This document shows positions 1,545-24,960 of a stretch of DNA of 64,000 nt, in pieces. The DNA lies in the sequence record NC_010583.1; one strand, written 5' to 3'. The notes under the pieces were generated by a model. That model was not told where the DNA came from. It worked only from the letters and a program-made list of their open reading frames with translations, and did no database searches. Position numbers and translations under genes: made by a program. The first letter of the stretch is position 1. The number at the start of each line of letters is the position of its first letter. The stretch comes from Escherichia phage Eps7.

Positions 1545-1592
1545 AAATATTATAACAAGAAATTAAGCATCAAGCAAGTACATTTTTAGCGA
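1545..1592 (-). promoter_or_regulatory. T5-type early promoter cassette (sigma70-like)
   Basis: On minus strand: A-rich UP, -35 CTTGCT, 17-nt spacer, -10 TATAAT, conserved leader ATTTATATAAATTGATGAGGAG. Confidence 0.55.
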
Positions 1593-1929
1593 TTTCTTGT
1601 AGTTCCTTAACGTCGCTAACGAAAAGGTAATCAGAGCTTCCAGAGTGCATACTCTGCATAACCACACCACCATCCGGTGCATCTTCTTTCAGTGTGATAC
1701 CTAACCAGAACTCGGCAAAACTAGGTGTTACCTCACCTTGACTTGCCTTGAACACATCGCCTTCTGTGATCTCTTGACCAGTGGAGAGTCCCATGTATGG
1801 TACGTTCAGATCAATATCTTTGTAGAACTCAGCTAGATCTTGCTCGAAATCCCAACCTTTAGAGATAGCGAACTCCATTGTTACATGACCGAAATAGCCT
1901 TGAACCTTGCTTGATAATTGCATTTGCAA
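1570..1929 (-). CDS. hypothetical protein (119 aa)
   Basis: ORF, protein-like composition. Confidence 0.5.
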   Translation of the reverse strand: MQMQLSSKVQGYFGHVTMEFAISKGWDFEQDLAEFYKDIDLNVPYMGLSTGQEITEGDVFKASQGEVTPSFAEFWLGITLKEDAPDGGVVMQSMHSGSSDYLFVSDVKELQEIAKNVLA

Positions 1930-1948
1930 TTCCTTATTTTGAGTTAAT

Positions 1949-2021
1949 TGGTACTCGGTGATAGAATCGAACTATCGCAACCGCCGTGTAAAGACGGGGT
2001 TCTCCCATTAAACTAACCGAG
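1949..2021 (-). tRNA. tRNA-Val (anticodon UAC; tentative)
   Basis: T-arm gatag/aatcgaa/ctatc, acceptor actcggt/accgagc, anticodon arm ccgcc-gtgtaaa-gacgg. Confidence 0.55.
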
Positions 2022-2026
2022 CAATT

Positions 2027-2104
2027 TGGTGGATTGCCTGGGATTCGAACCCAGAACTGACGGATTAAAGGTCCGCTACTCTTATCCAGTTGAGCTAGCA
2101 ATCC
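2027..2104 (-). tRNA. tRNA (anticodon not resolved; possibly Lys UUU)
   Basis: T-arm ctggg/attcgaa/cccag, acceptor ggattgc/gcaatcc perfect; anticodon arm ambiguous. Confidence 0.5.
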
Positions 2105-2490
2105 AATTTTTCTACTAATAATTTAAAAGCATCTAGTACAGGTACTTCAAACCATTCTCCAGATACTCTATAATCTTTAAGAAGATTATGTAATTCTTTC
2201 TCTGTACGTCTTTTATCCGACGAAAATCTGAAATGGTATAGCTTGTAGTCTCTATTAGGTGAATAAGTTTGATAACTTGTTAACCTCTCATTCACATCTA
2301 TAGTCATACCTATTTTATACATGCCTGGCCATGCTGGATTACCAATTACATATACAAAACCTTCCGTTATAGGTATTTTATGCTCCCTTTTATACTTTAA
2401 GAGATTTAAGGCTGCCATTCGATAACAGAATCTAAACTCTGAAGTTTTTAACTTACCTTCTTTACCTGAAATTTCGTTATATTTGCTCAT
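2095..2490 (-). CDS. GIY-YIG-like (T5orf172-type) domain protein
   Basis: Motifs GFVYVIGNP...YKIGMT...R...Y...E resemble the GIY-YIG/T5orf172 nuclease fold; embedded in tRNA cluster. Confidence 0.5.
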   Translation of the reverse strand: MSKYNEISGKEGKLKTSEFRFCYRMAALNLLKYKREHKIPITEGFVYVIGNPAWPGMYKIGMTIDVNERLTSYQTYSPNRDYKLYHFRFSSDKRRTEKELHNLLKDYRVSGEWFEVPVLDAFKLLVEKLDC

Positions 2491-2556
2491 ATAAGCTCTT
2501 ATGAGCTTATCATCTATAATGAAGTTATCAGGAAGGTTTAAGGCAGCTAAAAACTT

Positions 2557-2721
2557 TATTAATTAGCATAGACTTCCTTAATAGAATAAACTTTTAAGTT
2601 AAGGTGATTAATACCAAATTCCGCCATCACTTCGTTTTCATCTTTACCGTAATGGGCTAGTGGATACTTCTTACGATCTTTGCTAGAACGTAGATCACTT
2701 ACTTTTAAACGAAATAATTTC
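2557..2721 (-). CDS. hypothetical small protein (54 aa)
   Basis: ATG-initiated ORF MKLFRLKVSDLRS... found by manual translation; below the 60-aa ORF-track cutoff. Confidence 0.3.
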
Positions 2722-2743
2722 ATTTCGAAATCCTTCTATTAAA

Positions 2744-2820
2744 TTGGAAGCGGGTGCAGGAATCGAACCTACCTCTTTCTAGCTTATGAGACTAGCGATC
2801 TCTACCAGAGATCTAACCCG
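2744..2820 (-). tRNA. tRNA with CAU anticodon (Met or Ile-lysidine; tentative)
   Basis: T-arm gcagg/aatcgaa/cctac, acceptor agcgggt/acccgca, anticodon arm ctagc-ttatgag-actag. Confidence 0.55.
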
Positions 2821-2827
2821 CAATTGT

Positions 2828-2906
2828 TTGGTCTCCGTGGGAGGATTTGAACCCCCCGACCCTATCGCCCCAAACGAAACGCTCTGGCCAAACTGAGCTA
2901 CACGGA
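2828..2906 (-). tRNA. tRNA-Pro (anticodon UGG; tentative)
   Basis: T-arm ggagg/atttgaa/ccccc, acceptor ctccgtg/cacggag perfect, D-arm gctc...gagc, loop ccccaaa. Confidence 0.55.
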
Positions 2907-2934
2907 GAATATTCTTTGTTAACTCACTTTATAA

Positions 2935-2992
2935 ATATATTATACAGAGAATTAAGCTAAATAGCAACTACATTTTTAATAAATTTACTTAT
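2935..2992 (-). promoter_or_regulatory. T5-type early promoter cassette driving tRNAs at 2744-2906
   Basis: RC shows -35 GTTGCT, spacer, -10 TATAAT, conserved leader; tRNA begins about 30 nt downstream. Confidence 0.55.
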
Positions 2993-3212
2993 TAGGTAAG
3001 TCACCGAGCTATCAACTCATGCTAGCGAAAGTTTGCGAGACCTTCTTTAAGTACTAGAACACACCCGCCGATGTGTCGGACTTACTTAATAAGTAAACTT
3101 TCGTTTACTTACACCTACCTGGTCGGGAGGATTTTCAGCGACTAGAACCGGCCGGAAACTCATCGCCTTGTTTATCTAGGAGTCCGTTCTCTAGGAAGCA
3201 GAAACCTAAATT

Positions 3213-3287
3213 TGGTGCGGTCGGAGGGAATCGAACCCTCAACTTCTGGTTGGCAACCAAAAAATTATACCTTTTAACTACGAACGC
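3213..3287 (-). tRNA. tRNA-Gly (anticodon GCC; tentative)
   Basis: T-arm gaggg/aatcgaa/ccctc, acceptor gcggtcg/cgaacgc, anticodon arm tctgg-ttggcaa-ccaaa. Confidence 0.55.
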
Positions 3288-3295
3288 ATAATAAG

Positions 3296-3500
3296 TCAAT
3301 CTAGGCAGGACTTGAACCTGCTATCACTTGTGCGGATTTACGAGAACCATTCTTTCACTCGAATCGAACGAGCTTCTACCCTCGGCAAGCTGGTGTCCCC
3401 TCTCCACCACGCTAGAATGATAATTAATGCCTGCTCCTTTGAATCAAGAAGTCCACCCCGGACTTTGGGTCTTTGCAGTACATCACGCTGCTCTGATGTT
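3296..3500 (-). other. tRNA-like elements (T-arm hairpins without complete cloverleaf); possible tRNA pseudogenes or small ncRNA
   Basis: Two strong T-arm-like hairpins (gcagg-acttgaa-cctgc at 3306-3322; actcg-aatcgaa-cgagc at 3357-3373) but no matching acceptor stem found by eye. Confidence 0.3.
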
Positions 3501-3576
3501 TGGTACACCCACTAGGACTTGAACCTAGAACCCTCCGCTTAAGAGGCGGTAGCTCTAACCATTGAGCTATGGATGT
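3501..3576 (-). tRNA. tRNA (possibly Lys, anticodon CUU)
   Basis: T-arm ctagg/acttgaa/cctag perfect, D-arm gctc...gagc, acceptor acaccca/tggatgt, loop ttaagag. Confidence 0.5.
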
Positions 3577-3654
3577 ATTATTATGTTTTGCAGTGCTCTA
3601 AATATAGACACTTCCCACGCGGTGGTTATCTATACCAGCGTCCTGCAAAAATTG

Positions 3655-3731
3655 GCGCGACCGATGGGATTCGAACCCACATTTTCTCCCGTGACAGGGG
3701 AGTACCATTACCAAGCCAGCCCCGATCGCAT
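3655..3731 (-). tRNA. tRNA-Asp (anticodon GUC)
   Basis: T-arm atggg/attcgaa/cccac, acceptor gcgaccg/cgatcgc, perfect anticodon arm ctccc-gtgacag-gggag. Confidence 0.65.
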
Positions 3732-3752
3732 AATTTATTTACTCAGTTTTGA

Positions 3753-3936
3753 GTTTTTCGATAGCTTCCTCAACCTCTTTTAGAGCTTCACGACGGGCAT
3801 TCTGTTGCTGCATATCTTGAATTAATGTCAGTTTTTGTTTTTAATTTCTTGATCCCAAACCTTAATATTATTAATCAGACTATCACGATCAGCTTCTAGT
3901 CGAGCAATTGCACGAGTTGTCATATCTATTTCCTCA
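3753..3936 (-). CDS. hypothetical small coiled-coil protein (about 60 aa, apparent frameshift)
   Basis: Two short adjacent ORFs (MTTRAIARLEADRD... and ...MQQQNARREALKEVEEAIEKLKTE) join across an A5CA5 tract; manual translation only. Confidence 0.25.
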
Positions 3937-4025
3937 GTTATTAATGAAAATGGTATCTGTGACTGAATTCAATATCAGTAATGATAGCTGGTTGGCTACC
4001 GGTTTACTTAACTCTACACAGAATA

Positions 4026-4108
4026 TGGCGGGCCGTGTAGGATTCGAACCTACGTTGTCTTTCGACATGGATTAACAGTCCACCGCCAAACCGCTTGGCT
4101 AACGACCC
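4026..4108 (-). tRNA. tRNA with 13-nt variable arm; anticodon reads GUU (Asn?)
   Basis: T-arm gtagg/attcgaa/cctac perfect, acceptor gggccgt/acgaccc, anticodon arm atgga-ttaacag-tccac, variable hairpin gtc-tttc-gac. Confidence 0.5.
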
Positions 4109-4115
4109 TAAAATT

Positions 4116-4191
4116 TGGACGACCGCATGAGATTCGAACTCACATAAGGAGGTTTTGCAGGCCTCCGCCTAAGCCATTCAGCCAACGGTCG
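4116..4191 (-). tRNA. tRNA-Cys (anticodon GCA; tentative)
   Basis: T-arm atgag/attcgaa/ctcac, acceptor cgaccgc/acggtcg, anticodon arm gaggt-tttgcag-gcctc. Confidence 0.55.
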
Positions 4192-4369
4192 AGTTATCTT
4201 GCTTTTCGAGATTAGTAAACTCTAGATCTTTAGAATGTCCTATAGATCTAGCATAATAGCCATCTCCAGCATCATAGCCTGACTTACCACACTCACACAT
4301 CTTAAACTCTCTATAACGAGTGAAAATATGTTCAGAACCACAACACTTAAATTTAACTAACATTTTCAT
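4178..4369 (-). CDS. Cys-rich small protein (63 aa), putative zinc ribbon
   Basis: KFKCCGSEH...CECGKSG cysteine pattern; 3' end overlaps tRNA by about 14 nt. Confidence 0.4.
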   Translation of the reverse strand: MKMLVKFKCCGSEHIFTRYREFKMCECGKSGYDAGDGYYARSIGHSKDLEFTNLEKQDNSTVG

Positions 4370-4608
4370 TTAACACGCTCCGGTAAATCTTCGAGTTTAT
4401 ATTGAGTAGCCACATTAGCAGCATCTAGTAACAAACCCATATGTTTAAGAATCCTAGTGATAGCTTCGCCTTCTGCTTCTTCTACAAAAGTGCGTAGTTG
4501 AATGAAGTCAATACCACCATCCATACCAGAGAAAATGTTAAGTAAGCGAAGCATTACCAGCTTACGTTCTTTTAATTCTTGTTCTGCCATGTTGCTTCTC
4601 CAGTTCAA
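4366..4608 (-). CDS. hypothetical protein (80 aa)
   Basis: ORF directly downstream of promoter cassette 4625-4672; ATGA overlap with next gene. Confidence 0.45.
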   Translation of the reverse strand: MNWRSNMAEQELKERKLVMLRLLNIFSGMDGGIDFIQLRTFVEEAEGEAITRILKHMGLLLDAANVATQYKLEDLPERVK

Positions 4609-4624
4609 TTTATGTAATAATTAT

Positions 4625-4672
4625 ACAGAACTTTAAGGATTTAAGCAACTACATTTTTCAGAAATTTGATGC
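4625..4672 (-). promoter_or_regulatory. T5-type early promoter cassette
   Basis: RC: -35 GTTGCT, -10 TATAAT, conserved leader. Confidence 0.5.
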
Positions 4673-4928
4673 CTTTCTTTTTCTTCTTATACTTCCACGT
4701 TAATGGATTCTGTCGATTATGAACGCTTGAGATCTTTGTCTCGTCAAATTTCTTCAATACCATGTAATCACACGCCAACTGCTCTAGTGGAATGGTTTCT
4801 CCATCAAAAGCATAAACATAAGGCTGTTGACTAGCACGATAATGATAGACTTTGTTAACTCTACGTTTCAGCGACTTATCCGCGCAGTAAATAAAGAAGT
4901 TTTCAGGATGCATCAGCATCTCCTTCAA
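4641..4928 (-). CDS. hypothetical protein (95 aa)
   Basis: ORF; lysine-rich C-terminus overlaps the downstream promoter cassette. Confidence 0.4.
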   Translation of the reverse strand: MKEMLMHPENFFIYCADKSLKRRVNKVYHYRASQQPYVYAFDGETIPLEQLACDYMVLKKFDETKISSVHNRQNPLTWKYKKKKKGIKFLKNVVA

Positions 4929-5011
4929 ATTGGTGCAACCTGTACGTAACGATCGTACCTCTTCTCCTTTTCAGGGAGACGCTAATCCATCTCAGCTAAA
5001 GTCGCAAATAT

Positions 5012-5088
5012 TGGCAAACCTACTAGGACTCGAACCTAGACCGTACGGTTTTGGAGACCGACATGCTGTCCAGTAACACTCTAGGAAT
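5012..5088 (-). tRNA. tRNA-Trp (anticodon CCA; tentative)
   Basis: T-arm ctagg/actcgaa/cctag perfect, anticodon arm acggt-tttggag-accga; acceptor pairing imperfect. Confidence 0.5.
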
Positions 5089-5096
5089 GCAGAAAT

Positions 5097-5172
5097 TGGC
5101 GTCCTGTGCGGGGATCGAACCCGCAAATCCTACCTTGAAAGGGTAGTGACTTTACCAGTTTGTCTAACAGGA
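5097..5172 (-). tRNA. tRNA-Glu (anticodon UUC)
   Basis: T-arm gcggg/gatcgaa/cccgc, acceptor gtcctgt/acaggac perfect, anticodon arm ctacc-ttgaaag-ggtag perfect. Confidence 0.65.
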
Positions 5173-5180
5173 CTTAAATT

Positions 5181-5271
5181 TGGTGTTGGATGATGGAGTC
5201 GAACCACCCGAGACCCTTCCGAGTCGGCAGATTTACAGTCTGCTTCGCTACCTCTACGATACTAATCCAAC
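5181..5271 (-). tRNA. tRNA-Tyr (anticodon GUA, type II)
   Basis: T-arm gatgg/agtcgaa/ccacc, acceptor gttggat/atccaac perfect, anticodon arm gcaga-tttacag-tctgc perfect, long variable arm. Confidence 0.65.
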
Positions 5272-5416
5272 ATATTTGAATGAAAAATAAGTCGGTTAAA
5301 CTCAAGGTGGAATATTTCAGGAAATCCTGACTTTACCCCTAAAAGCAACTCGCTTAGTTACTTCTCATTCAGATATGTTTTCCAAATTAGATAACTATTA
5401 TATCAAGTTTTGAAGG

Positions 5417-5452
5417 ACTGAGCAAGTCAAATTTTAAAGAACTTGCTCAGTG
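5417..5452 (-). terminator. intrinsic terminator hairpin (11-bp stem)
   Basis: actgagcaagt ... acttgctcagt inverted repeat immediately downstream of the 5462-5737 gene. Confidence 0.45.
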
Positions 5453-5461
5453 CTATATCAG

Positions 5462-5737
5462 TTACTCGAAGCTAGGAGTGACACTCAGTTTGAATGGAAG
5501 CTCGAACACTTCTTCATAATCATCATTGAGCGTAATTACACGACCTTCTAGCTTAGTCATGGTGATTTCGATATCAGCCTCTGCATCAGGAGCCATACCA
5601 GCTTCCACACATTTAGCTTTGACTTCCGGCAGAAGTTCTACATCGTAGAAATAAAGCCATTCAATCTCACCTTCCCAGCCACCCCAGGATTTACAAACAG
5701 CACTTTCAACACCAGTTGCAGTAACACGTTTTGACAT
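5462..5737 (-). CDS. hypothetical protein (91 aa)
   Basis: ORF downstream of promoter cassette 5775-5815. Confidence 0.5.
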   Translation of the reverse strand: MSKRVTATGVESAVCKSWGGWEGEIEWLYFYDVELLPEVKAKCVEAGMAPDAEADIEITMTKLEGRVITLNDDYEEVFELPFKLSVTPSFE

Positions 5738-5774
5738 TCGTTAACTCCTTCATCAATTTATATAACTATTATAG

Positions 5775-5815
5775 CAGAAATCTTAAGTAAAAAGCAAGTA
5801 CATTTTTAAAATTTC
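5775..5815 (-). promoter_or_regulatory. T5-type early promoter cassette
   Basis: RC: -35 CTTGCT, -10 TATAAT, conserved leader. Confidence 0.5.
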
Positions 5816-5827
5816 TGCTTGGAGGAG

Positions 5828-6034
5828 TTAAACTCCTGATTCTTCAGCCAGATCAAGCCCAACCAACGTGATTGCCATAATAGCCGCGCCATGTTCTTTC
5901 TCTCCTAGCTCTTTGGCTTGAGTGAGAATATTTAGGAACTGCTTTTGAAAATCTGCAACTTCTTCTGTCATGCCTGCTTCAGCAATAATTCCTTTCAGCA
6001 TAAAGCGTTGTGCCGTAATTTCAGGATTAGCCAT
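5828..6034 (-). CDS. hypothetical protein (68 aa)
   Basis: ORF. Confidence 0.45.
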   Translation of the reverse strand: MANPEITAQRFMLKGIIAEAGMTEEVADFQKQFLNILTQAKELGEKEHGAAIMAITLVGLDLAEESGV

Positions 6035-6185
6035 TTATTATCTCCAGTTATTTAGAATGTAAGCCAAACTTAGGATCATAGCGATCGTAAGTCGTACCAT
6101 TAGTTGAAGCCTTGATGCTATGAAAACGACAGTACATAAATTTACGTAGTGCTTTCTTAATAGCTTTCATTTTATTTCCTTAATT

Positions 6186-6262
6186 TGGTAGGGGTGGTGG
6201 GATTCGAACCCACAAAACCTGAATTTTAAGTCCAGTACCTATGCCAATTCGATTACACCCCC
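6186..6262 (-). tRNA. tRNA (anticodon reads UAA, Leu-like but type I; uncertain)
   Basis: T-arm gtggg/attcgaa/cccac perfect, acceptor aggggtg/caccccc, anticodon arm ctgaa-ttttaag-tccag. Confidence 0.5.
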
Positions 6263-6280
6263 ATGTAATCTTAGCGAATC

Positions 6281-6603: not shown

Positions 6604-6608
6604 CCATC

Positions 6609-6894: not shown

Positions 6895-6988
6895 TGGAGG
6901 AAGATGCCAGATTCGAACTGGCACACCGTGTCTCCACAGCTACTGGCTGTTTAGCAAACAGCTCCCTTACCTTTAGGGTTAATCTTCC
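6895..6988 (-). tRNA. tRNA-Ser (anticodon GCU, type II)
   Basis: T-arm gccag/attcgaa/ctggc perfect, acceptor ggaagat/atcttcc perfect, anticodon arm gctgt-ttagcaa-acagc perfect, long variable arm. Confidence 0.65.
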
Positions 6989-6999
6989 GAATTTATGAA

Positions 7000-7045
7000 T
7001 ATATTATACAGAAAATTTCGGCATTAAGCAAGTGAAATTTTACTG
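7000..7045 (-). promoter_or_regulatory. T5-type early promoter cassette driving tRNAs at 6812-6988
   Basis: RC: -35 CTTGCT, -10 TATAAT, conserved leader. Confidence 0.5.
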
Positions 7046-7336: not shown

Positions 7337-7362
7337 ATTTGATTCCTCTCTCAAATTTATAA

Positions 7363-7400
7363 ATATATTATACAGAAATTTTCTATATAAGCAAGGTAAA
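7363..7400 (-). promoter_or_regulatory. T5-type early promoter cassette
   Basis: RC: -35 CTTGCT, 17-nt spacer, -10 TATAAT, leader ...TTTGAGAGAGGAATCAA then ATG. Confidence 0.55.
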
Positions 7401-7436
7401 AATTTATGTATATAGCCCTCTAAGCGAGGGCTATAA
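7398..7436 (-). terminator. intrinsic terminator
   Basis: Hairpin tatagccctc-taagc-gagggctata followed on the minus strand by a U-run. Confidence 0.5.
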
Positions 7437-9176: not shown

Positions 9177-9202
9177 ATTTGATTCCTCTCTCAAATTTAT
9201 AA

Positions 9203-9250
9203 ATATATTATACAGAGAATTTAGCGTTCAAGCAATCGAATTTTTAAACT
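9203..9250 (-). promoter_or_regulatory. T5-type early promoter cassette (drives nadR-pnuC)
   Basis: RC: -35 ATTGCT, -10 TATAAT, conserved leader with GAGAGAGGAATCAA RBS. Confidence 0.55.
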
Positions 9251-10709: not shown

Positions 10710-11791
10710 TTAGGTATTTTTAAGAACTCTTATAAAAGCTCTTAAAGATACCCGACGGTAGGTAGGGTCAGCCCCCTCAGATTAAGCTCTGCAGCCCTTC
10801 CGTCAGACAATATCTTCCAGTTTAAGTCAGGGTGACTTTGTGGTTATGTTCTCCGTATGTGAAGAACTCGGTTAGGCTTAGGTCATGACTCCCAGCCTAC
10901 TGCTGCCACTCAACAGGAATTATCGCGAATTACCTGTACTATTGGGCACCATTAGTGACATCTCTCATGTCAGCGTTTCCCACTCTCATATTCACGCGGT
11001 CTGTTAGAATCGCACCTCCGATTTTCGATGCGAAGCTGGATGCCTAGTCTCAGGTTAAACGGGGCACACACTAGGCAGTGATCCCGAGTTCCGAGTTTGG
11101 TTGAGGCCGTCAGGTTTCCTCGTGGTTTAGCTGTTTCGATTCTAACCTAATACTGATCAGGTGGCGTACCTCCTGAACCGTCATAGTATGTACTCCAGCA
11201 GCGAATGCTTATCCGGTATAAGCCCGAGTTATCCGATTCTTTCCAGAAGGAGCAGTAAAGCTCAATGTCAGCCTGTGAGCATCTGGCAGTGTTATCACAT
11301 AAGTCAGTTCGACACCCCACATTTTAGTGCCTGGTAGATCCCGAATGAAGCCCTCAGTCGTTAGACCTCCATCATTCATCAAAGATTTACGCTACCCACT
11401 ATTCGATGGACAATCGCCGCATTGTGGTATACATACGTTTTCACTTGCATCCTAGACGGGTCAGCGTTGAAAGTTATATGGGTTTCTCAAGCCCAACCTT
11501 CAGTCTTCTACCCCTGGGACACGCACCGTATTTCACACTGTGCCTAGCTCCTGTTGAGACCCATCGTTTTGTATAAATTAGAGAAGAGTTTAGAGGAGAG
11601 GTTTCAGACGCCTCATTTTACAAGAAGTCTCGAACCTATATTCGTTACTCTAGTCACTTGGCCGGATATACCGGACTGGACTCGGAACTCTAACAGGTGA
11701 TCATTCTTAACCCACCGACTCTATTCAGTGTCAGAAGCTATCACTAGGTGAATCGCTAAAGCTCACTCAGCGTAATCGGCTCGCTGTTCTC
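10710..11791 (-). ncRNA. candidate large structured non-coding RNA (about 1.05 kb), co-transcribed with tRNA-Arg
   Basis: No ORF of 60 aa or more in any frame over about 1.1 kb; stops dense in all frames; GC visibly higher than flanking genes; conserved promoter cassette at 5' end, tRNA at 3' end. Confidence 0.3.
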
Positions 11792-11838
11792 TAATTTATG
11801 AATCTATTATACAGAATTTTGGAACGTTTAGCAAATCA
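11792..11838 (-). promoter_or_regulatory. T5-type early promoter cassette driving the ORF-free region and tRNA-Arg
   Basis: RC: -35 TTTGCT, -10 TATAAT, conserved leader start; no ATG or RBS follows. Confidence 0.5.
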
Positions 11839-11842
11839 ATTT

Positions 11843-12286
11843 TTAATTAAATTCGCCAGCAACCTGAGCAGCAATGCCACCATCGTAACGACCAGGAAAC
11901 TCTTCCTTAATCGCTTTCATCAGCATACCCTTTGTAATCCCAGGATTCAACTTAACTAATTCTGCAAAGTATTTGCGAATCTCAGAATCAGATAACTGAG
12001 GCGGCAGATACTGTTGTAGCCATTTGTTCAGTATATATTCATACTGAGCAGACTGCAAGCTATAATTATCAAGGTCTTGACCGTGAAGTTTAGCTTTTGT
12101 CTGATTAATGCTTTTCAGTTGAGCTTTTAGATAAGATACAAACTGTTCAGAAGTAATGAAGTCTTTATCAACACGCTGAAGATCTCCGATTATAGTCTGG
12201 TAGCTTTTAGCTACTTCTTTATCAGAACCATCAACCTTAGATTCCTGCAAAGCCCTACGCAAAACATCTAGAATATTCTCTTCCAT
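11843..12286 (-). CDS. GatB/YqeY domain protein
   Basis: 147-aa protein with YqeY-like C-terminal motif NPGITKGMLMKAIKEEFPGRYDGG. Confidence 0.55.
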   Translation of the reverse strand: MEENILDVLRRALQESKVDGSDKEVAKSYQTIIGDLQRVDKDFITSEQFVSYLKAQLKSINQTKAKLHGQDLDNYSLQSAQYEYILNKWLQQYLPPQLSDSEIRKYFAELVKLNPGITKGMLMKAIKEEFPGRYDGGIAAQVAGEFN

Positions 12287-12461: not shown

Positions 12462-12474
12462 GCTTCCTCTCATT

Positions 12475-12520
12475 AATTTATGAAAGTATTATACAGAAAT
12501 TTAAGGCTTTAAGCAATCGA
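12475..12520 (-). promoter_or_regulatory. T5-type early promoter cassette
   Basis: RC: -35 ATTGCT, -10 TATAAT, leader ...AATTAATGAGAGGAAG. Confidence 0.5.
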
Positions 12521-12524
12521 ATTT

Positions 12525-12992
12525 TTAAGTTTTCTTAACCACAGGCTTGTAGAACGTATGGCCTTGAATCTTCGTTGTTTTCTTAAACTTCTTTGTCCAG
12601 TACGGTTTATCTTTACCACTATGGAAGTATAACGCTCCATGTGTTGGATCTTGTGGTAAATCAACGTAGTATATCACTCTAGCTAAATTCTTAGCAACTT
12701 GCCAAGCCTCATCGGTTTTATCAACTTTTGGTCTCTTGGCCACCCAAGAGAACTGGTTAGACTGATATACTACTTTACAGTAAGAATCAGGAAAGTACCA
12801 GAGTTAACACGGTTTTTTAGTAACCTGTGCAACTGCGATCATTCCTTTAGTGCCCTCACCTCGTGCTTCGAAGTAGATATTTTTTGCAATGCAATCAATC
12901 TGCTTTGAGTCGTAGGTCGCATGACTATTGAAGCTATAGGTTAGGGCAGCTATTAAAAGCAAAGCTGCCTTCATTTTATTTACTCCGGCCAA
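12525..12992 (-). CDS. SleB/CwlJ-like cell-wall hydrolase with signal peptide (two apparent frameshifts)
   Basis: N-terminal signal peptide plus NIYFEARGE...AVAQV; middle ...NRVNSG.F.DSYCKVVYQSNQFSW and C-terminal ...ALYFHSGKDKPYW recovered across tracts at 12813-12818 and 12790-12791. Confidence 0.5.
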
Positions 12993-13297: not shown

Positions 13298-13323
13298 AAT
13301 AGCCTCGTCTCATCAATTTAAAA

Positions 13324-13372
13324 ATATATTATACAGAAAACTAAACTAATTAGCAAATACATTTTTAAATTG
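13324..13372 (-). promoter_or_regulatory. T5-type early promoter cassette
   Basis: RC: -35 TTTGCT, -10 TATAAT, conserved leader. Confidence 0.5.
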
Positions 13373-14612: not shown

Positions 14613-15385
14613 AATTATTTTCCTTTTGTTGTTCTCTCAAATTTATGAATATATTATACAGAATTTGGAGCTGAAAGCAAATCAAATTTTGATTTTTTTC
14701 GATCATGATGGCTACACAATAACTTTCAACTAAAGCATCGAATGCGGGATCATGTTTCACTGGATAGATTCCATAACGAATGGTATCCATCTTTTCCATT
14801 TTAGCTTTTGCCCAGCTAGCACCTTCGGCTTCTAGATCTTTATAGCTATAACCAGCTTGCATCCACTGATTACGGAAAGATCGAACGTTACCTAAGTTCC
14901 AGAATTTCCACGGAACTATTTCTTCATGGGTTCCGGCATGGAACGTATTTGCAGAGTAGATTGTCATATCAAACTCTGGGCCATTGCCGTAATACAGAGC
15001 ATTATCTCCTAGAGACAATTCCATAATGTTCTGAGCCATAGAGAAGGCAGCATAATTAGAGCCTACGTCATTAGTGCAGTGATGCTTACCATCACGGAAG
15101 GCAATCAGTTTAGGATTACGACCATTTAGAGCCTCCATAATATGGAGCGCAGATGGACTGTTTTTTAGCTTGATCCATCCAGAATGCAATAGTAGAGGCA
15201 GTTACCTTAGCACCCGCATTAAGCTGATCTTGAACGTCTAGAGTAACGAATACCAGATCAGGATCTTTATCAATTCCGTGCATCGCTACAAAAGCGAAAG
15301 AAGGCATTGCAATATGAGTAGTACCGCAATTTCCTGGAGTACCTAGAGATTCAATGTCCAGCATACCAAAGGGCTTGAATTTCAT
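14599..15385 (-). CDS. DEDDh-family 3'-5' exonuclease-like protein (frameshifted at T6 tract 15161-15166)
   Basis: Exo I-like LDIESLG, later H-x4-D (HDPAFD); two ORFs join when the A6 run on the coding strand is shortened to A5. Confidence 0.5.
14650..14695 (-). promoter_or_regulatory. T5-type early promoter cassette
   Basis: RC: -35 TTTGCT, -10 TATAAT, conserved leader. Confidence 0.5.
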
Positions 15386-16462: not shown

Positions 16463-16498
16463 TATTTGTTTTCCTTTTTGTTGATCAATTTATGAGAT

Positions 16499-16545
16499 AT
16501 ATTATACGAAATTTTGAAGCGTTTAGCAAATGAATTTTTTAAAAA
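16499..16545 (-). promoter_or_regulatory. T5-type early promoter cassette
   Basis: RC: -35 TTTGCT, -10 TATAAT, conserved leader. Confidence 0.5.
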
Positions 16546-16824: not shown

Positions 16825-16847
16825 AAAGCCCTCCTCACTTTCAATAC

Positions 16848-16895
16848 GAATATTATACTAAATTAGAGGGCTTTAAGCAAGTGAATTTTTAATTT
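16848..16895 (-). promoter_or_regulatory. T5-type early promoter cassette
   Basis: RC: -35 CTTGCT, -10 TATAAT, leader. Confidence 0.5.
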
Positions 16896-18227: not shown

Positions 18228-18243
18228 TATTAAATCCTTCTGT

Positions 18244-18295
18244 CAAATTAGAAGTATATTATATTTGAATTTCACTCAGTAAGCAAATGAAATTT
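18244..18295 (-). promoter_or_regulatory. T5-type early promoter cassette
   Basis: RC: -35 TTTGCT, -10 TATAAT. Confidence 0.45.
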
Positions 18296-18302
18296 AAATA
18301 TA

Positions 18303-20062: not shown

Positions 20063-21207
20063 TAGAACATATCCTCAAATTCGTTGCCAAGATCTTTCAG
20101 AGTATCAGCAGATGTTTCTGTTACTTGACCTACACGATACGCTGCGCCAATCTGAATCTCTTGCGGAGCAGGTTGTAAAGATGTAGTATCCAACCAGTTC
20201 ATAATCCACGGAATAGGGTTCTTAGTAATTACAGGTAAGTGGCTTGGCCATTCTACACCAATGTGCATAAATGCGTTACGTCCTACAAAGTAAAGGTATT
20301 CTTCAAGCAGTTCTGCGTTCAAACCAATCAGACTGCGGCCTTTAAAGATAAAGTGGCCCCATTCAATCTCAGTTTTCAGAGTTTTTAGGAGTTGTGTTGG
20401 TGCTTTAGCTAATGCTTCATCTACCAGATCTTTATCAAATTGCTGGAACATAATCTGGATGATAGCTTTAGACATTTGAGTATGTAGAGCTTCATCTTTA
20501 GCGATTAATTGCAGGTTCTTAGCAATACCTTGCAGAATATCGTTCTCTGCTAGAGCAAAGGTACATGCAAAGGATGCGTAGAACTGCATTGCTTCCAGAC
20601 CGTAGATTGCAAAGTAAGCATCTAACAGCTTAGCCTGAGTTTCACGTTTAACTTCAGGGAACTCAGTTTCTGGATAAGTATTATCACCACGATGATCACG
20701 TACTGCAAGGAAATACTGACCTAACAGATACAATTCATCAAACAGTTCAACAGAATCTGCGATACGTGCAAATGCTTCTTGGTTTTTAGTTACAGAATCA
20801 ATAAATTCTGCTGGATCAGTCAGAACGTTACGAATAATATTACTATACGCACGGCTGTGCAGATCTTCGAAGTAGCTCCACTGCTTGAGCATACCCTCCA
20901 ATTCAGGACGGCTTACAAGCGGCATAATAGCTGCTTCAGGAGCACGGCTAATGAAAGAATCTGTTTGGGTCTGCCATGCTAAGTTCAGGAGAGTAATTTC
21001 CTGAATATCACGCGGAAGGTTTGGCCATTGTTTCTTATCGGCTTCCAGACTGATTTCAGTTTCAGTCCAAAATTGAGAACGTTGCAGAAGTGCTAGACGC
21101 TCAAGTTCAGGATGTGCTACACGAACGTAATCTGCGATACCAAGAGAATCGCCCAGGAAAAGGTCAGCGTTAGTATGATCCCAATTCAGGTTTAGTAAAG
21201 TAGTCAT
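20062..21207 (-). CDS. nrdB: ribonucleotide reductase class Ia beta subunit
   Basis: Ferritin-like diiron motif region ...FACTFALAEND...AKDEALHTQ; 381 aa; adjacent to nrdA. Confidence 0.85.
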   Translation of the reverse strand: MTTLLNLNWDHTNADLFLGDSLGIADYVRVAHPELERLALLQRSQFWTETEISLEADKKQWPNLPRDIQEITLLNLAWQTQTDSFISRAPEAAIMPLVSRPELEGMLKQWSYFEDLHSRAYSNIIRNVLTDPAEFIDSVTKNQEAFARIADSVELFDELYLLGQYFLAVRDHRGDNTYPETEFPEVKRETQAKLLDAYFAIYGLEAMQFYASFACTFALAENDILQGIAKNLQLIAKDEALHTQMSKAIIQIMFQQFDKDLVDEALAKAPTQLLKTLKTEIEWGHFIFKGRSLIGLNAELLEEYLYFVGRNAFMHIGVEWPSHLPVITKNPIPWIMNWLDTTSLQPAPQEIQIGAAYRVGQVTETSADTLKDLGNEFEDMF

Positions 21208-21235
21208 TGATTTTCCTCTTTCTCACTATTTCAGG

Positions 21236-21282
21236 AATATTATAGCAAATCTGGTAGCGATTAGCAAGTAAAATTATAAACT
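21236..21282 (-). promoter_or_regulatory. T5-type early promoter cassette (upstream of nrdB)
   Basis: RC: -35 CTTGCT, -10 TATAAT. Confidence 0.45.
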
Positions 21283-21756: not shown

Positions 21757-21788
21757 AATCTAAAATTACAGCCATTATAGGCCTAATA

Positions 21789-21806
21789 AAGGGGCTTTCG
21801 CCCCTT
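21789..21806 (-). terminator. intrinsic terminator (GGGGCTTTCGCCCC hairpin), possibly bidirectional
   Basis: aggggctttcgcccct directly after nrdA stop; T-rich flanks on both sides. Confidence 0.5.
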
Positions 21807-21811
21807 ATTTA

Positions 21812-24204
21812 TTATAATTGACAACCACCAGATGCGCATCCAGCAGCAGCTTCCTCTCCTGCACCTCCACCATTTTCAGTGTTGAAGTTTGCATAATAAA
21901 AGGTTTTCCAACCGTACTTAACAGCAGTCATAAAGTCACGAACTACTACTGGGCCGGGAATGATTTCATTCTCGAACTTGGTGTAGTCATAGTACATATT
22001 CGTACTGATAGACTGGCTGAAGAATTTCTGCATGGTTGCTACCCATTTGATCCACTCGATACGATCTACATCATAAGCCAGTTTATAGCTCATTAATGTA
22101 TCCCAATCAGTTGCACCTGGAGCAATTGCAATTACTTTATTAACTGCACTACCCTTGATAGATACGATCTTACGGGGCGGTTCGATAGAGTTAGTAACAC
22201 CTAGCAGTACAGAGGAACTTTCACCTGGCATCTGAGCAGTCAGAACAGAGTTGCGCATACCATATTTCAGAATATCTGCACGCAGAGATTCCCAATCCAT
22301 TTCTAGACCTACAGTTACCAGTTCATCAACAGTTTTCTTGTACGTGTCGATTACCAGAGTTCCTTGCGAAGGCTTAGTACGATTAAACCAGTCACATGCA
22401 CCTTGTTCTTTAGCCAGACGTACAGAGGCTTTATGTAGGAAGTAGGACAGCTTTTCAGCTTCACGGTGAATCCAGTTACGTGCTTCAACACCTTCGTAAG
22501 CCAAACCTTCTGCTGCCATTGCACCTGCTGCGTTCATCAGACCAATACCAACGTTACGACGTTTCTTAGCCGTGTACTTCCATAGTTGGGAATGGGTAAT
22601 CCTGAATCTCGATGATTGTATCAACGAATTTCAGAAGGATGTAGCAAGTTTTCTCCCATTCAGCCAGAGATTCCATGCGGCCTAGTACAACACCACCTAA
22701 GTTACACAGAGATACTTCACCAATATCTTCTGGACGCATATCGTCTAACTGATCTTGGGTTTTATACAGTTCCGTAACGTGATGGAATGGACGGGTGGCT
22801 GAGTAATTCAACACAAAAGGGTTGGTCATACGAATCGGGTCAAGGAAGTTACCATGACGGTTAGATTCACCAATGTGATGAGCATACATACGCCCTGTTT
22901 CCATACGGATACGTAACCAAGTATCTAGGATTTCTTTTGCAGAGATTCTAGGAGCTGCTGGAATTGTTTTTCCTTCGTGGTCGATCTTTGTAAGAGAAGC
23001 CACACGTTTCTCCGCTGCCACGTAGATTTCTTCAAACTTAGCCTCATCTTCACCATAAAACGCTTCATGAACTTCTGGTGCGTAGAAGTAGGACATTAGC
23101 GTAATATCTTCGTTTTTCAGGTAACGTTTTAACAGAAGGTTGTTAAAGCTCAGAGAATAATCCATCTTATCGATTTTATTCTCGTCTGTAGCACGTTGCT
23201 GCTTAACCTGCATCAACTGAATGATTTCAGGATCGAAGTATGGATAAGACACAGTAGCAGAACCGCCACGGGTTTGCTGAGTGTTAGCTTTTACTGATCG
23301 GTCAATGTGTCGATAATATGGCAGTTTTCCGGAATGCGGGAATGCCCCATTTCGCACCGGATCAGCAATTGATCGGCTTTCAAGATGATACCCGATTCCC
23401 GCTCTGGCTGCGACCATTTTGAAGACGATGTGCTCGGCTGTGTCGATTGAATCCAGCGTGTCAGTGGAATCCACGAGACAGCAACTAGCAAATCCACGGT
23501 CACTAGAGCGCAGGCCAACCAGTGGCGGCGTAGGAACGTTGATTTTGTGGAGCGACATTGCATTGTAGAGGTCGATTGCATCTAGGATTGTCCAGTTAGG
23601 TTGAGATAACATCGCCATTGCCATACCCATGTAGGCAAACTGCGGGGTTTCATAAATTTCACCAGTTGCAATATTACGACGAGAATACTTGTCGAAGAAC
23701 TGTTTCAGTCCACCACTGGTGAATAAACGATCGCGATCATGATCAATAACTTGGTTCAGAGCGTCAAACTGATCATCGCTAATCCATGCACTCATGTCTT
23801 CCCAGCGCCAACACGAACCATATGATCGTGGAAGAAACGCAGAGAAGGGGTTCAAAGGAATCATATAGGCGTTTACGCATCTGCGCAAGACGTAATTCCT
23901 TTGCTACAGTATCATATGCTGGGTTGTCTTTGATAAGACCTTCAGCGGCTTTAATTAACACATCTTGGAGGGTATCGGAATCTACAACACCTTTTGGTAG
24001 ATTTTTCTGGGCAGACATAACGACGGCAGACCAACTTACGTCAGTTGCTTTACATGCCCATGCAGCCCAATCATTGAGTTTTTCAGGAGCAAAGTCCTGA
24101 ACAGTACCGTCACGTTTAATTACTTTTTCAATACTATGGCTCATTGGGGTTTCCTTTTTGTAGTTATCAGGATTTAGGAAATATTCTACTTTGTTTTGGG
24201 TCAT
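21812..24204 (-). CDS. nrdA: ribonucleotide reductase class Ia alpha subunit (three apparent frameshifts)
   Basis: ATP-cone N-terminus, catalytic core ...VIDHDRD..., ...RRNVGIGLMNAAG..., C-terminal CxxxGGC tail; fragments join at G4 tract 23847-23850 (restores FEPP), at 23799-23800 and near 22575-22581. Confidence 0.75.
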
Positions 24205-24267
24205 TATGCAAGTACAATTTTACAGATAAAAAGAGCCCGGATATTTTCATACCCAGGCTCGTCTGTC

Positions 24268-24510
24268 TTACCATTTAAGTTTATCGGTTATATCAATTAG
24301 CTTCTGTTGTATTTCTCGGTTGAAGAGAATATCTACAGAAGTACTTAGTTCATTATAGTTGAAAGGCCGATTTGGATTAGAGGCTACAATTTTCCACGCT
24401 AGGGTAGTCTTAGGACTTTCTTCCCCTTCCTTACGTGTAATCATGTTAGCAGCACTCAGTGAAGTACGGTGGATCTTAGTTTTGCGGTGCAGATGTACGA
24501 CGTTTCCCAT
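24268..24510 (-). CDS. hypothetical protein (80 aa)
   Basis: ORF. Confidence 0.45.
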   Translation of the reverse strand: MGNVVHLHRKTKIHRTSLSAANMITRKEGEESPKTTLAWKIVASNPNRPFNYNELSTSVDILFNREIQQKLIDITDKLKW

Positions 24511-24511
24511 A

Positions 24512-24811
24512 TTACACCTTCCCCATATCCTTAAAGATATCGTAGAATGCTTTAGACTCCGGTGAGCGAACGTTGTCGATCAGTTCGATCATAGAGAAAG
24601 GAGAGTTTTCGTACTTCTCATAGACTTCCATAAGAAGTGCTAGACCTGAATCACCCTTGATGTCTTTCTGAGCTATATCCCCACAGATAATTAAACGACA
24701 ATCTTGTCCTACACGAGTCAGGAGACAGATCATTGCTTCAACGGAGATATTCTGAGCTTCATCGACAATTACATAGGAGTTGTTGAATGTTGCCACGCTT
24801 TCTTGAACCAT
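24512..24811 (-). CDS. PhoH-like ATPase C-terminal-domain protein (short form)
   Basis: Walker B-like YVIVDEAQN and ...IICGDIAQKDIKG...SGL; Walker A absent; start may lie at 24845 if the T6 tract at 24823-24828 is an overcall. Confidence 0.45.
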   Translation of the reverse strand: MVQESVATFNNSYVIVDEAQNISVEAMICLLTRVGQDCRLIICGDIAQKDIKGDSGLALLMEVYEKYENSPFSMIELIDNVRSPESKAFYDIFKDMGKV

Positions 24812-24913
24812 TGCGGTTCTCTCTTTTTTGACGTGCTTTTCCCATAAATAACACTCCTATAGTGTACTTCGCTAACAGAGGATCAACAAAAAGATCTTGT
24901 TTATCAACTTACA

Positions 24914-24960
24914 AATATATTATACCAATATATGCGGGAGAAAGCAACTACAATTTTAAA
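24914..24960 (-). promoter_or_regulatory. T5-type early promoter cassette (leftward, for PhoH-like operon)
   Basis: RC: -35 GTTGCT, -10 TATAAT; part of a divergent promoter region. Confidence 0.5.

Follow-up and report, generated by a model that had tools for sequence, protein, structure and literature searches.

Introduction

The early promoters of bacteriophage T5 have reportedly been studied by the groups of Bujard, Ksenzenko, Hsu and Severinov, and one of them, PN25, is in use in expression vectors. T5 promoters are said to be the subject of work by Gentz and Bujard from 1985, and a downstream sequence region of N25 was reportedly described by Kammerer et al. in 1986. Escape is the limiting step at N25: replacement of positions +3 to +20 lowered full-length RNA about 10-fold, as judged from transcript yield in vitro. 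The initial transcribed sequence (ITS) has a more than 10-fold effect on promoter strength in vivo, and its purine content correlates with productive yield. An ATATT discriminator is common to the early promoters, and primer extension has shown the P15A and Ppol transcripts of T5 to appear with early kinetics (Klimuk et al., 2020).

Here we analyzed a stretch of 64 kb (the window) from the Escherichia phage Eps7 (NC_010583.1). It belongs to a T5-like phage, being ~87% identical to T5 and 97–98% identical to deposited phages of Salmonella and E. coli. An initial annotation had described a repeated module in it, interpreted as strong T5-type early promoters followed by a short leader, RBS and ATG, and had proposed the leader as a possible shared regulatory target.

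Promoter Cassettes of Eps7 and Their T5 Counterparts

Both strands of the window were scanned with a two-part weight matrix made from 23 aligned cassette copies. This revealed 26 strong cassettes (29–71 bits) and a weak one (15 bits), 18 on the minus and nine on the plus strand, all located between 1.5 and 46 kb; the scan found none on either strand between 46 and 64 kb. In 20 dinucleotide-preserving shuffled controls the top score was 3.3, and no site reached 12. The cassettes are non-random repeats, with a module of ~65–85 nt per copy. Four matches lay outside the seed set and are independent, namely 5768(−), 41375(+), 45957(+) and the weak 24183(−), which carries TAGAAT; the copy at 5397(−) was first picked up by a regular expression and afterwards placed among the seeds. 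A generic sigma-70 consensus scan of the window gave no enrichment (51 sites vs. 52 expected); it is the extended motif specific to the family that produces the signal. The module was recovered, with offsets of ~5–30 nt, at all 16 minus-strand and eight plus-strand positions of the initial annotation, of which 5775 and 45928 correspond to the non-seed sites 5768(−) and 45957(+). The sites of that list are real, but it omitted 24183(−), 41375(+) and 5397(−).

The copies are orthologous to promoters annotated in T5 (GenBank AY543070 and AY587007), including P13a/b, P14a/b, P15a-c, P16-17, P-D/E33, P-H207, P-N25, P-N26, P-K28a, Ppol and P31A/B. Architecture and genomic positions are the same in the two phages and the sequences nearly so; Eps7 differs in having one additional P15a-type copy, tied to a NadR/PnuC insert, and no cassette was detected by the matrix scan at the position of T5 P-K28b. 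The segment comprising the −10 element and ITS, which takes in the conserved leader of the initial annotation, corresponds to repeats “b” and “c” of the T5 annotation. The copy at 33,960, annotated in T5 as “promoter P-N 25,” departs from the published sequence of PN25 at two bases. The reading as strong T5-type early promoters is right in its core, and because the family has already been catalogued in T5, a close relative, the cassettes are ordinary rather than new: they are the very strong “early” promoters of T5 that are served by the host polymerase.

Structure and Conservation of the Repeated Block

Start sites in Eps7 were placed by homology and are putative; a +1 at the A of ATAAATTT agrees with the designation of the first C of N25 as “C30” and with the sequence of the window. 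Relative to this position, an A-tract is found around −45 to −42 in 20–22 of 23 copies. In the −35 element TTGCT, the first T, the second T and G are each present in 23/23 copies, C in 22/23 and the last T in 21/23. With the −35 element read as TTGCTN, the spacer is 17 bp long in 22 of the 27 cassettes, 16 bp in two and 18 bp in three. The −10 hexamer TATAAT does not vary across the 26 strong copies. It is followed by a discriminator in which −6 is A in 21/23 copies, −3 is T in 18/23 and −1 is always a pyrimidine (23/23), by ATAAATT from +1, each position of which is matched in 17–21 of 23 copies, and by purines from +8 to +16. The block thus defined, a 6-nt untranscribed discriminator ATATTy joined to +1 ATAAATT(T)GAGAG, is unbroken across the start site. 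The element ATATTTATAAATTTGAGAGAGGA had been taken for a wholly transcribed leader, which does not hold, as the discriminator makes up its first six bases. Its description as near-identical among copies needs qualification as well: the full 29-mer is exact at two sites and has up to three mismatches at four, and most copies have no more than +1 to +7 and the purine run in common. Sub-types of the block are recognizable, which the T5 annotation calls repeats “b” and “c.” ATAAATT (≤1 mismatch) occurs at +1 in 18 of 31 core promoter sites, compared with 1 of 63 other occurrences of TATAAT.

Across 27 related genomes, distinct orthologues were 0.997 identical in the −10 hexamer and 0.991 identical at +1 to +7, vs. 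0.834 in the distal spacer and 0.88–0.93 in the flanks; the value at +17 to +25 was 0.976. Positions +1 to +7 are under purifying selection. The block recurs in Demerecviridae (T5-like phages) of Klebsiella, Providencia and Vibrio, and ITS sub-types are common to Escherichia and Vibrio phages. The Eps7 copies share A at −6, T at −3 and the pyrimidine at −1 with the known ATATT discriminator (Klimuk et al., 2020), but conservation is stronger still at +1 to +7 and reaches other genera of the family; no mention of either extension was found in the open literature searched.

These features suggest that the copies are, very probably, sigma-70-dependent promoters of the early class, one for each short early unit, and that the block is a part of the promoter. 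The A-tract, acting as an UP element, together with TTGCTN and a perfect TATAAT at 17 bp would recruit the host RNA polymerase very fast. The discriminator (A-T-A/T-T-N-Y), the ITS (+1 ATAAATT(T)GA) and the purine run would constitute the promoter’s own “downstream sequence region,” predicted to govern the late steps of initiation and escape, while the purine run GAGAGGA would double as the Shine-Dalgarno (SD) sequence in about half of the copies, leaving a minimal leader of 21–25 nt before the ATG. The N25 experiments concern the same sequence as the conserved +1 to +20 of the Eps7 copies, and purine-rich ITSs aid escape; from N25 and its engineered variants, the only templates on which the effect was measured, we infer that the mechanism extends to the other 26 copies.

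Genes Downstream of the Cassettes

Several cassettes (coordinates given as −46 to +20) precede stable RNA genes on the minus strand. The P13b orthologue (1523..1588, +1 at 1542, 59.9 bits), which maps to T5 32029, has no adjoining ORF; its transcript would consist of a 10-bp hairpin with a GAAA loop (z = −4.95), an RNA2H-like region and then tRNAs. The P13a orthologue (2913..2978, +1 at 2932, 56.5 bits) lies 25 nt upstream of the start of tRNA-Pro, P14a (5371..5436, +1 at 5390, 53.3 bits), absent from the initial list, 119 nt upstream of the tRNA Tyr-Glu-Trp-Phe cluster that it drives, and P15b (6977..7042, +1 at 6996, 64.5 bits) 8 nt upstream of tRNA-Ser. These four (1549, 2939, 5397 and 7003) had been missed as stable RNA or tRNA cassettes, whereas three others had been flagged as lacking an ORF. 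Only the one at 11792 fits that description: it is T5 “P 16-17” (11780..11845, +1 at 11799, 65.9 bits), which drives a non-coding transcript of ~1.09 kb resembling the “RNAX” of T5, up to tRNA-Arg (10708). The second, at 30391, corresponds to T5 promoter 58999-59073 (30380..30445(+), +1 at 30426, 52.2 bits) and is not ORF-less, since a leader of 367 nt is followed by a 970-aa ORF for the origin-binding protein at 30793. The third, at 45827, is P31A (45816..45881(+), +1 at 45862, 58.1 bits), which stands first in a tandem of two promoters and has a 10-bp hairpin after the ITS (z = −5.43). Its downstream partner P31B (45918..45983(+), +1 at 45964, TTGTC, 18-bp spacer, 50.8 bits, non-seed) is separated from the ORF at 45985 by a leader of 21 nt.

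Protein-coding genes follow most of the remaining copies, usually at short distance. On the minus strand, leaders of 23–25 nt were found for P14b (4594..4659, +1 at 4613, 50.4 bits; 23 nt to the ATG at 4590), P15c (5742..5808, +1 at 5761, 18-bp spacer, 56.2 bits, non-seed; 24 nt), P-D/E33 (12462..12527, +1 at 12481, 61.0 bits; 25 nt), and the counterparts of the unnamed T5 promoter 43067-43141 (13302..13367, +1 at 13321, 61.8 bits; 24 nt) and of T5 promoter 46937-47011 (18232..18297, +1 at 18251, 48.6 bits; 24 nt). Two copies have a divergent ITS: those of T5 promoters 46337-46411 (16826..16891, +1 at 16845, 47.5 bits; 21 nt) and 50061-50135 (21213..21278, +1 at 21232, 44.2 bits; 25 nt to a 381-aa ORF at 20062-21207). 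Longer leaders belong to the counterpart of T5 promoter 44393-44467 (14627..14691, +1 at 14646, 16-bp spacer, 64.2 bits; 34 nt), where a separate SD lies downstream of the GAGAG run, to P-H207 (16475..16540, +1 at 16494, 47.2 bits; 32 nt) and to that of 53638-53712 (24893..24958, +1 at 24912, 55.6 bits; ~100 nt to a 99-aa ORF). The weak site (24157..24222, TTGCA/TAGAAT, 15.0 bits) is the counterpart of the putative promoter T5P29.

On the plus strand, the highest score in the window belongs to the PN25 orthologue (33921..33986, +1 at 33967, 71.1 bits), with a 25-nt leader to D2, and the PN26 orthologue (34932..34997, +1 at 34978, 56.0 bits) has the ITS variant CATAGTTTGAAAG and a 52-nt leader to D3. 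A terminator lies upstream of the counterparts of T5 promoters 55708-55782 (repeat c copy 5; 27103..27168, +1 at 27149, 48.9 bits, 23-nt leader), where its hairpin is immediately adjacent, and 65284-65358 (repeat b copy 4; 36149..36214, +1 at 36195, 61.7 bits), which has a 25-nt leader to ligA. The P-K28a orthologue (37324..37389, +1 at 37370, 63.3 bits) has a 24-nt leader to ligB, and the counterpart of the T5 pol promoter (41336..41401, TTGCC, 18-bp spacer, 29.6 bits, non-seed), a weaker copy, precedes the DNA polymerase gene.

This arrangement bears on the idea that the conserved 5′ leader acts as RNA, as a translation enhancer, RNase site or sRNA target common to early mRNAs, which we regard as improbable. 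In its favor, the leader is nearly constant in 14 copies (21–25 nt) and its SD falls within the conserved run of purines, positions +17 to +25 are conserved, and structure in the mRNA leaders is weak (z = −0.7 and −1.7). The RNAX-like transcript also contains a conserved run of pyrimidines with complementarity to the leader, so that pairing in trans is possible in principle, but this arm matches its own 5′ end perfectly and is mismatched to other leaders. Moreover, conservation crosses the untranscribed discriminator, the spacing is fixed to the −10 hexamer and not to the ATG, and +1 to +7 are kept ahead of tRNA and non-coding RNA genes and in leaders of 52–367 nt; the block is independent of what is transcribed. 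The N25 effect, too, was measured on transcript yield in vitro. A leader of only 21–25 nt in 14 copies leaves little room for RNA signals beyond the RBS. The proposal of a shared RNA target is therefore not upheld.

The P15a region raises a different question. Eps7 has there a paralogous copy (7341..7405(−), +1 at 7360, 16-bp spacer, 60.6 bits, 24-nt leader to a 98-aa ORF) and the positional orthologue (9181..9246(−), +1 at 9200, 67.1 bits), which serves a NadR-like gene followed by PnuC. These copies (7367 and 9207) are identical over 45 nt, from −17 to ATGA, and bracket the NadR/PnuC module, which has no counterpart at the single P15a of T5; the Vibrio phage Brizo likewise repeats lineage-specific ITS variants within its genome. 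The cassettes could thus be portable modules, kept alike by recombination or gene conversion and serving as break-points for the exchange of gene modules. In T4-type phages, promoter-early stem-loop (PeSL) elements are mobile regulatory cassettes; there, as in T5-type phages, the region of small and variable early genes is interspersed with many near-identical strong early promoters, which often lie beside the hairpin of a terminator. Alignment break-points against the 27 relatives fell within cassettes 14 times vs. 5.9 expected under uniform placement (P = 0.002). However, once intergenic location was considered, the excess disappeared (10 observed vs. 10.4 expected, P = 0.62), unlike what the PeSL idea would predict, and we rejected the cassettes as recombination hotspots. 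Most copies also occupy orthologous positions conserved between Eps7 and T5, and we consider the portable-module explanation as a whole highly unlikely.

Concluding Remarks

A further proposal accepts the copies as promoters and differs from our preferred explanation only in the reason for the conservation of the block. The region from −6 to about +14 would be an operator-like signature through which a phage-encoded factor, the RNAP-binding gpT5.026 and/or D5, selectively shuts early promoters at the early-to-late switch; we hold this to be possible, though rather unlikely. The main difference between early and late promoters lies in the discriminator; RNAP contacts with −5/+2 become weaker in the presence of gpT5.026, whose loss raises early transcripts ~5-fold (Klimuk et al., 2020). 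D5 is annotated in T5 as needed for late transcription, with a role in the shut-off of expression. The block is missing from the late-type promoter 61189(−) and the divergent promoters 25060(−) and 25168(+), and its conservation extends over genera in which the polymerase proteins share only 57–78% identity. Yet sequence-specific DNA binding is not documented for gpT5.026 or D5.

In the usual view, contacts of RNA polymerase downstream of +1 are only weakly sequence-specific. Therefore, the near-invariance of +1 to +7 and the ITS sub-types shared by Escherichia and Vibrio phages may reflect another reader, either a phage factor or the RNA itself. Overall, because it runs unbroken through the start site, equals the −10 hexamer in conservation among orthologues and also precedes genes for tRNA and non-coding RNA, the block is best read as a part of the promoter that doubles as a minimal 5′UTR and RBS, rather than as a regulatory site dedicated to RNA-level control.

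Detection and Anatomy of the Early Promoter Cassettes

Promoter cassettes of the T5 early type are statistically overwhelming in the window. Sequence extraction recovered the module at every position listed in the initial annotation, and the main interpretation given there, T5-type early promoters, proved correct. A loose regular expression (TTGNN-N16–18-TANAAT) gave 38 matches vs. 16.3 ± 3.5 in shuffles, with the whole module at about 30 of them. A two-part weight matrix, built from 23 copies aligned on the −10 hexamer and run over both strands, returned 26 sites at 29–71 bits plus a weak one at 15, whereas the top score in dinucleotide shuffles (n = 20) was 3.3. The sites 5768(−), 45957(+), and 41375(+), which were not among the seeds, scored 29.6–56 bits, and thus the matrix does not merely recover its own input. 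Three cassettes, 5397(−), 41375(+), and the weak 24183(−), are additional to those proposed initially. In the scan of both strands of the 64-kb window, the cassettes were confined to 1.5–46 kb, and none was found in the final 18 kb. A generic sigma-70 and terminator scan of the window showed no enrichment over shuffles and is therefore uninformative for cassettes of this type.

The −10 hexamer is an exact TATAAT at 26 sites. The −35 element TTGCT is invariant in its first three bases (T, T, and G; 23/23 seeds) and nearly so in its C (22/23) and last T (21/23). The spacer measures 17 bp in 22 of the 27 copies, with two copies at 16 bp and three at 18 bp; the 17-nt spacer described previously holds in the aligned copies, provided that the −35 hexamer is taken as TTGCTN. 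Upstream, an UP-like block has AAAA at about −45 to −42 in 20–22 of 23 copies and T at −40 in all 23, and the part of the spacer nearer the −10 tends to AAnTTyTG. The discriminator has A at −6 (21/23), T at −5 (17/23), T at −3 (18/23), and a pyrimidine at −1 (23/23); no more than about one copy in four has the exact string ATATT.

The transcribed part starts with A-T-A-A-A-T-T from +1 and continues with a purine run at +8 to +16, and the N25-type conserved initial transcribed region (+1 ATAAATTTGAGAG) is present in the window cassettes. ATAAATT at +1, with no more than one mismatch, was found at 18/31 core promoter sites vs. 1/63 control TATAAT sites. Only two sites have the full 29-mer without a mismatch; the majority of copies share only +1 to +7 and the purine run. 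The sequence ATATTTATAAATTTGAGAGAGGA, previously designated as initial transcribed, is indeed a conserved block, but it is not wholly transcribed, as it opens with the six untranscribed bases of the discriminator. In the orthologue of the T5 promoter N25 (copy 33960; copies are designated by approximate window positions), the predicted transcription start is the A of ATAAATTT. According to the N25 literature, C30 is the earliest C in the N25 transcript, and in the window orthologue the first C falls exactly at this position, consistent with a start at this A.

Relationship to Phage T5 and Its Annotated Promoters

Megablast searches, for which the first 20 kb and 500 nt near 33.9 kb served as queries, matched several hundred T5-like phages (Demerecviridae); the nearest were Salmonella and E. 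coli phages with 97–99% identity, and T5 showed about 87%. The rough counterpart of the window is T5 coordinates 30–93 kb. A minus-strand cluster of 21 tRNAs occupies 183–10,708. Early genes on the minus strand are followed by a divergent switch at about 25 kb, coinciding with a change of sign in the GC skew, then by replication genes on the plus strand and, from about 52 kb, by minus-strand genes again.

Two promoter arrangements of another kind were observed in the window. At the strand-switch point (24890–25200), a divergent promoter cluster comprises the early cassette 24919(−), followed by 25060(−) and 25168(+); the latter two have no early-type initial transcribed sequence (ITS), and 25168(+), upstream of nrdD, has a perfect TTGACA. 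At 61161–61230 (−) there is a strong promoter of a different class (TTGATA-17-TATAAT) without the early discriminator and ITS; it is followed by ATTAAGAGGAGAAATTAACTATG, apparently a near match to “RBSII,” the ribosome-binding site of the pDS/pQE expression vectors.

Based on flanking homology, all 27 copies map onto annotated T5 promoter features, at positions orthologous to early promoters of the second-step-transfer region. GenBank record AY587007 lists these as “putative early promoter T5P16…T5P38,” and its 25–29-nt “repeat b” and “repeat c” copies cover exactly the −10 plus ITS segment; AY543070 has 75-nt promoter features with classical names. On the minus strand, copies 1549 and 2939 correspond to P13b and P13a, 4620 and 5397 to P14b and P14a, 5768 to P15c, 7003 to P15b, 9207 (with its paralogue 7367) to P15a, 11806 to P16-17, 12488 to P-D/E33, and 16501 to P-H207, and the weak copy 24183 to T5P29 of AY587007. 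On the plus strand, 33960 corresponds to P-N25, 34971 to P-N26, 37363 to P-K28a, 41375 to the pol promoter, and 45855 and 45957 to P31A and P31B. The other copies correspond to annotated T5 promoters without a name. The cassettes belong to a promoter family that is among the best known in molecular biology and already fully annotated in T5.

Copy 33960 deviates by two bases from PN25 as printed in two papers. In T5, ligB is preceded by the tandem promoters P-K28b and P-K28a, whereas the window has only the P-K28a orthologue; the P-K28b counterpart was expected at about 37270 (+), and no cassette was found in the ~90 nt upstream of 37363. The ligB orthologue itself (~37394–38172, +) is split by a frameshift near 37,700, with ~95 N-terminal codons in one frame and the remainder in another (T5 ligB is the NAD-dependent ligase subunit B, 259 aa); this may be either a sequencing error or a real frameshift.

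Several window-vs.-T5 alignment ends land inside cassettes. Furthermore, copies 7367 and 9207 (7341–9246, −), both of the P15a type, are identical over 45 nt from −17 to ATGA and bracket a NadR-like gene (NMN adenylyltransferase plus AAA_28 kinase, 8121–9176) and a PnuC NMN transporter gene (7442–8134), both of which, unlike in the window, are absent at the single P15a of T5. The possibility of mobile cassettes, similar to T4 PeSL, or of recombination hotspots was evaluated with 20-kb loci of 27 close relatives, the chained BLAST alignments of which to the window gave 99 clustered break-points. Cassettes contained 14 break-points vs. 5.9 expected under a uniform null (P = 0.002), but 10 vs. 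10.4 expected under an intergenic-only null (P = 0.62). Due to the loss of the excess against the intergenic-only null, we reject this idea as a general property, and the 7367/9207 duplication is an anecdote.

Transcription Units Headed by the Cassettes

Sequence inspection and manual checks showed that 14 copies have a leader of 21–25 nt, with the Shine–Dalgarno (SD) sequence within or just past the purine run and followed by ATG. Leaders of 32–34 nt were found for three copies, of 52–55 nt for two, and of ~100 nt for one; copy 30419 has a 367-nt leader ahead of an ORF for a 970-aa origin-binding protein, and a repeat search in this leader revealed nothing notable. Five copies (2939, 7003, 5397, 1549, and 11806) drive tRNAs or stable RNAs: tRNA-Pro begins 25 nt after copy 2939, tRNA-Ser 8 nt after 7003, and 5397 heads the Tyr-Glu-Trp-Phe tRNA cluster. 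Three cassettes had been considered to lack an ORF. Copy 11806 does head a non-coding unit, but 30419 heads an ORF beyond its long leader, and 45855 forms a tandem pair with 45957, which lies downstream of it.

Copy 11806 is the counterpart of P16-17, which in AY543070 precedes “RNAX,” an annotated stable RNA, and tRNA-Arg. The distance from its +1 (11799) to tRNA-Arg is 1.09 kb (10709–11799, −), relatively GC-rich at 46.7%, and no convincing ORF was found in it. Rfam revealed only tRNAs at gathering score in the whole window and, in a permissive search of 10600–11850, nothing at E ≤ 1 except tRNA-Arg. A literature search on RNAX and T5 stable RNAs returned nothing. In sliding-window folding, this RNAX-like RNA was no better than coding controls (mean z = −0.41). 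The exceptions were nt 1–240 (z = −2.66) and, beside tRNA-Arg, the last ~225 nt, where the last two windows had z = −2.4 and −2.3.

Among relatives, the region is modular: nt 1–36, 178–228, and the last ~275 nt are conserved, and the remainder is replaced. The second conserved island ends in UUCUCUAAUUUAU (11572–11584, −), which over its 13 nt is perfectly complementary to the 5′ end of the same transcript, AUAAAUUAGAGAA (11787–11799, −), and in the first 240 nt these two arms close a predicted multi-branched domain (−68.4 kcal/mol). In T5 (~12530–12575, −, of the T5 locus L002) and several relatives, the arms are just 21 nt apart and form a 13-bp 5′-terminal hairpin; in other relatives the second arm lies at +168 to +216, closing a ~200-nt domain. 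It looks as if a structured domain was inserted into, or lost from, the loop of the 5′-terminal hairpin. As separate observations, the run CCUCUCCUCU adjoining the UUCUCUAAUUUAU arm is anti-SD-like, and ~370 nt of the 5′ part are common to Klebsiella phage Spivey (71% identity) and not to T5.

Strong hairpins near the 5′ end were also predicted for the transcripts of the other cassettes that have no adjacent ORF, 1549 (a 10-bp stem with a GAAA loop at +6 to +29, 1514–1537, −; z = −4.95) and 45855 (10 bp at +19 to +46, 45880–45907, +; z = −5.43). It is reasonable to infer that units without a protein product would sequester the SD-like leader in a 5′ stem and that such a stem would also protect the 5′ end. 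The open literature searched contained no mention of such sequestration in the ORF-less units.

Role of the Conserved Block

The T5 early promoters, their extreme strength, and the role of their transcribed region have long been known, and PN25 is in standard use in biotechnology. N25 surpasses other strong promoters in its rate of RNA polymerase binding and in the lifetime of its open complexes. Its UP elements are of the canonical and the spacer type, and escape is its rate-limiting step. An effect of the ITS on promoter strength in vivo of more than 10-fold has been reported, and purine-rich ITSs favor productive synthesis. Replacement of +3 to +20 of N25 (the “antiDSR” variant of Kammerer et al., 1986) reduced full-length RNA to about a tenth. 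ATATT is the common discriminator of T5 early promoters and the main point in which they differ from late ones, and the P15A and Ppol transcripts were seen by primer extension in T5-infected cells with early kinetics (Klimuk et al.). The start site and the early use by host RNA polymerase are known only for T5 orthologues, N25 in vitro and P15A and Ppol in infected cells.

In the window, the conserved block runs without a gap from the −10 hexamer across the discriminator and as far as +7, and it is phased to the −10, not to the ATG. The heptamer +1 to +7 is kept ahead of tRNA and ncRNA genes and of long leaders. Among distinct orthologues in 27 related genomes, its identity is 0.991, essentially equal to that of the −10 hexamer (0.997); identity was lower in the −35 (0.944), in the discriminator (0.938), in the coding sequence on either side (0.91–0.94), and above all in the distal spacer (0.834). 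Folding showed the mRNA leaders to be weakly structured, and leaders of 21–25 nt leave room for little except the ribosome-binding site. The initial annotation had proposed the conserved leader as a possible shared regulatory target; a dedicated RNA-level signal is a minority alternative, and the phasing to the −10 and the retention before tRNA and ncRNA genes argue against it. These features, together with the level of identity, the contrast to control TATAAT sites, and the short, weakly structured leaders, lead us to read the cassette as a promoter, the transcribed part of which doubles as a minimal 5′UTR with SD. All of these results fit a promoter-level role of the conserved “leader.”

Conservation Across Demerecviridae

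The same architecture and the same consensus after the −10 were found in several other Demerecviridae, namely Klebsiella phage Spivey, Providencia phage PSTCR5, and Vibrio phage Brizo, the DNA polymerases of which are 78, 67, and 57% identical to that of the window, respectively. The consensus is ATaTttATAAATTggag in the window, AtTTtcATAaATTgaaGAGA in Spivey, ATTTaTATtaAaTggA in PSTCR5, and AtTTaCATAAAtTgAAgA in Brizo, and 19–24 core sites per 40–50 kb were counted, compared with 2–3 in shuffles. ITS variants, for example the PN26-type CATAGTTTGAAAG, reappear in each genus. Distinct ITS sub-types, such as the PN26-type ATTCnCATAGTTTGAAAGAAC, are common to Spivey, Brizo, and PSTCR5, apparently at non-orthologous genes; further sub-types are ATTTATATTGAATTGAGAGA and the Brizo-specific AGTTACATAAAGTTGAGAAACGGAGAT, repeated about five times. 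As a negative control, 52 environmental loci with a distant homologue of a T5.085-like early protein lacked the cassette. An exact-pattern scan of IMG/VR with the repeat-c 31-mer returned eight stretches, a number insufficient for context statistics.

The block from −6 to +14 is nearly as constant as the −10 hexamer in phages ranging from those of Escherichia and Salmonella to the T5-like phages of Vibrio, and it may therefore be more than a promoter-strength element. Conservation of this degree across genera exceeds what generic A/T richness explains. The main alternative explanation for it is that the block is read by a class-specific phage factor, e.g., the RNA polymerase-binding protein gpT5.026 or D5. 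A more elaborate version, in which −6 to +14 would be a family-wide signature by which such a factor recognizes early promoters and shuts them off in a timed manner, with the same sequence reused in RNA and the conserved anti-leader and anti-SD stretch maybe pairing in trans with the leaders of early mRNAs, seems to us unlikely. The open literature searched contained no mention of the family-wide conservation of +1 to +7, and key older papers lay beyond its reach; this silence is weak evidence of novelty.

Overall, our analysis assigns about 27 predicted early starts of transcription to a T5-like phage and bears out the division of its early region into many short units, comprising mRNA, tRNA, and stable-RNA operons. 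The finding that +1 to +7 is as constrained as the −10 hexamer across genera of Demerecviridae bears on the mechanism of the T5 early-to-late switch.
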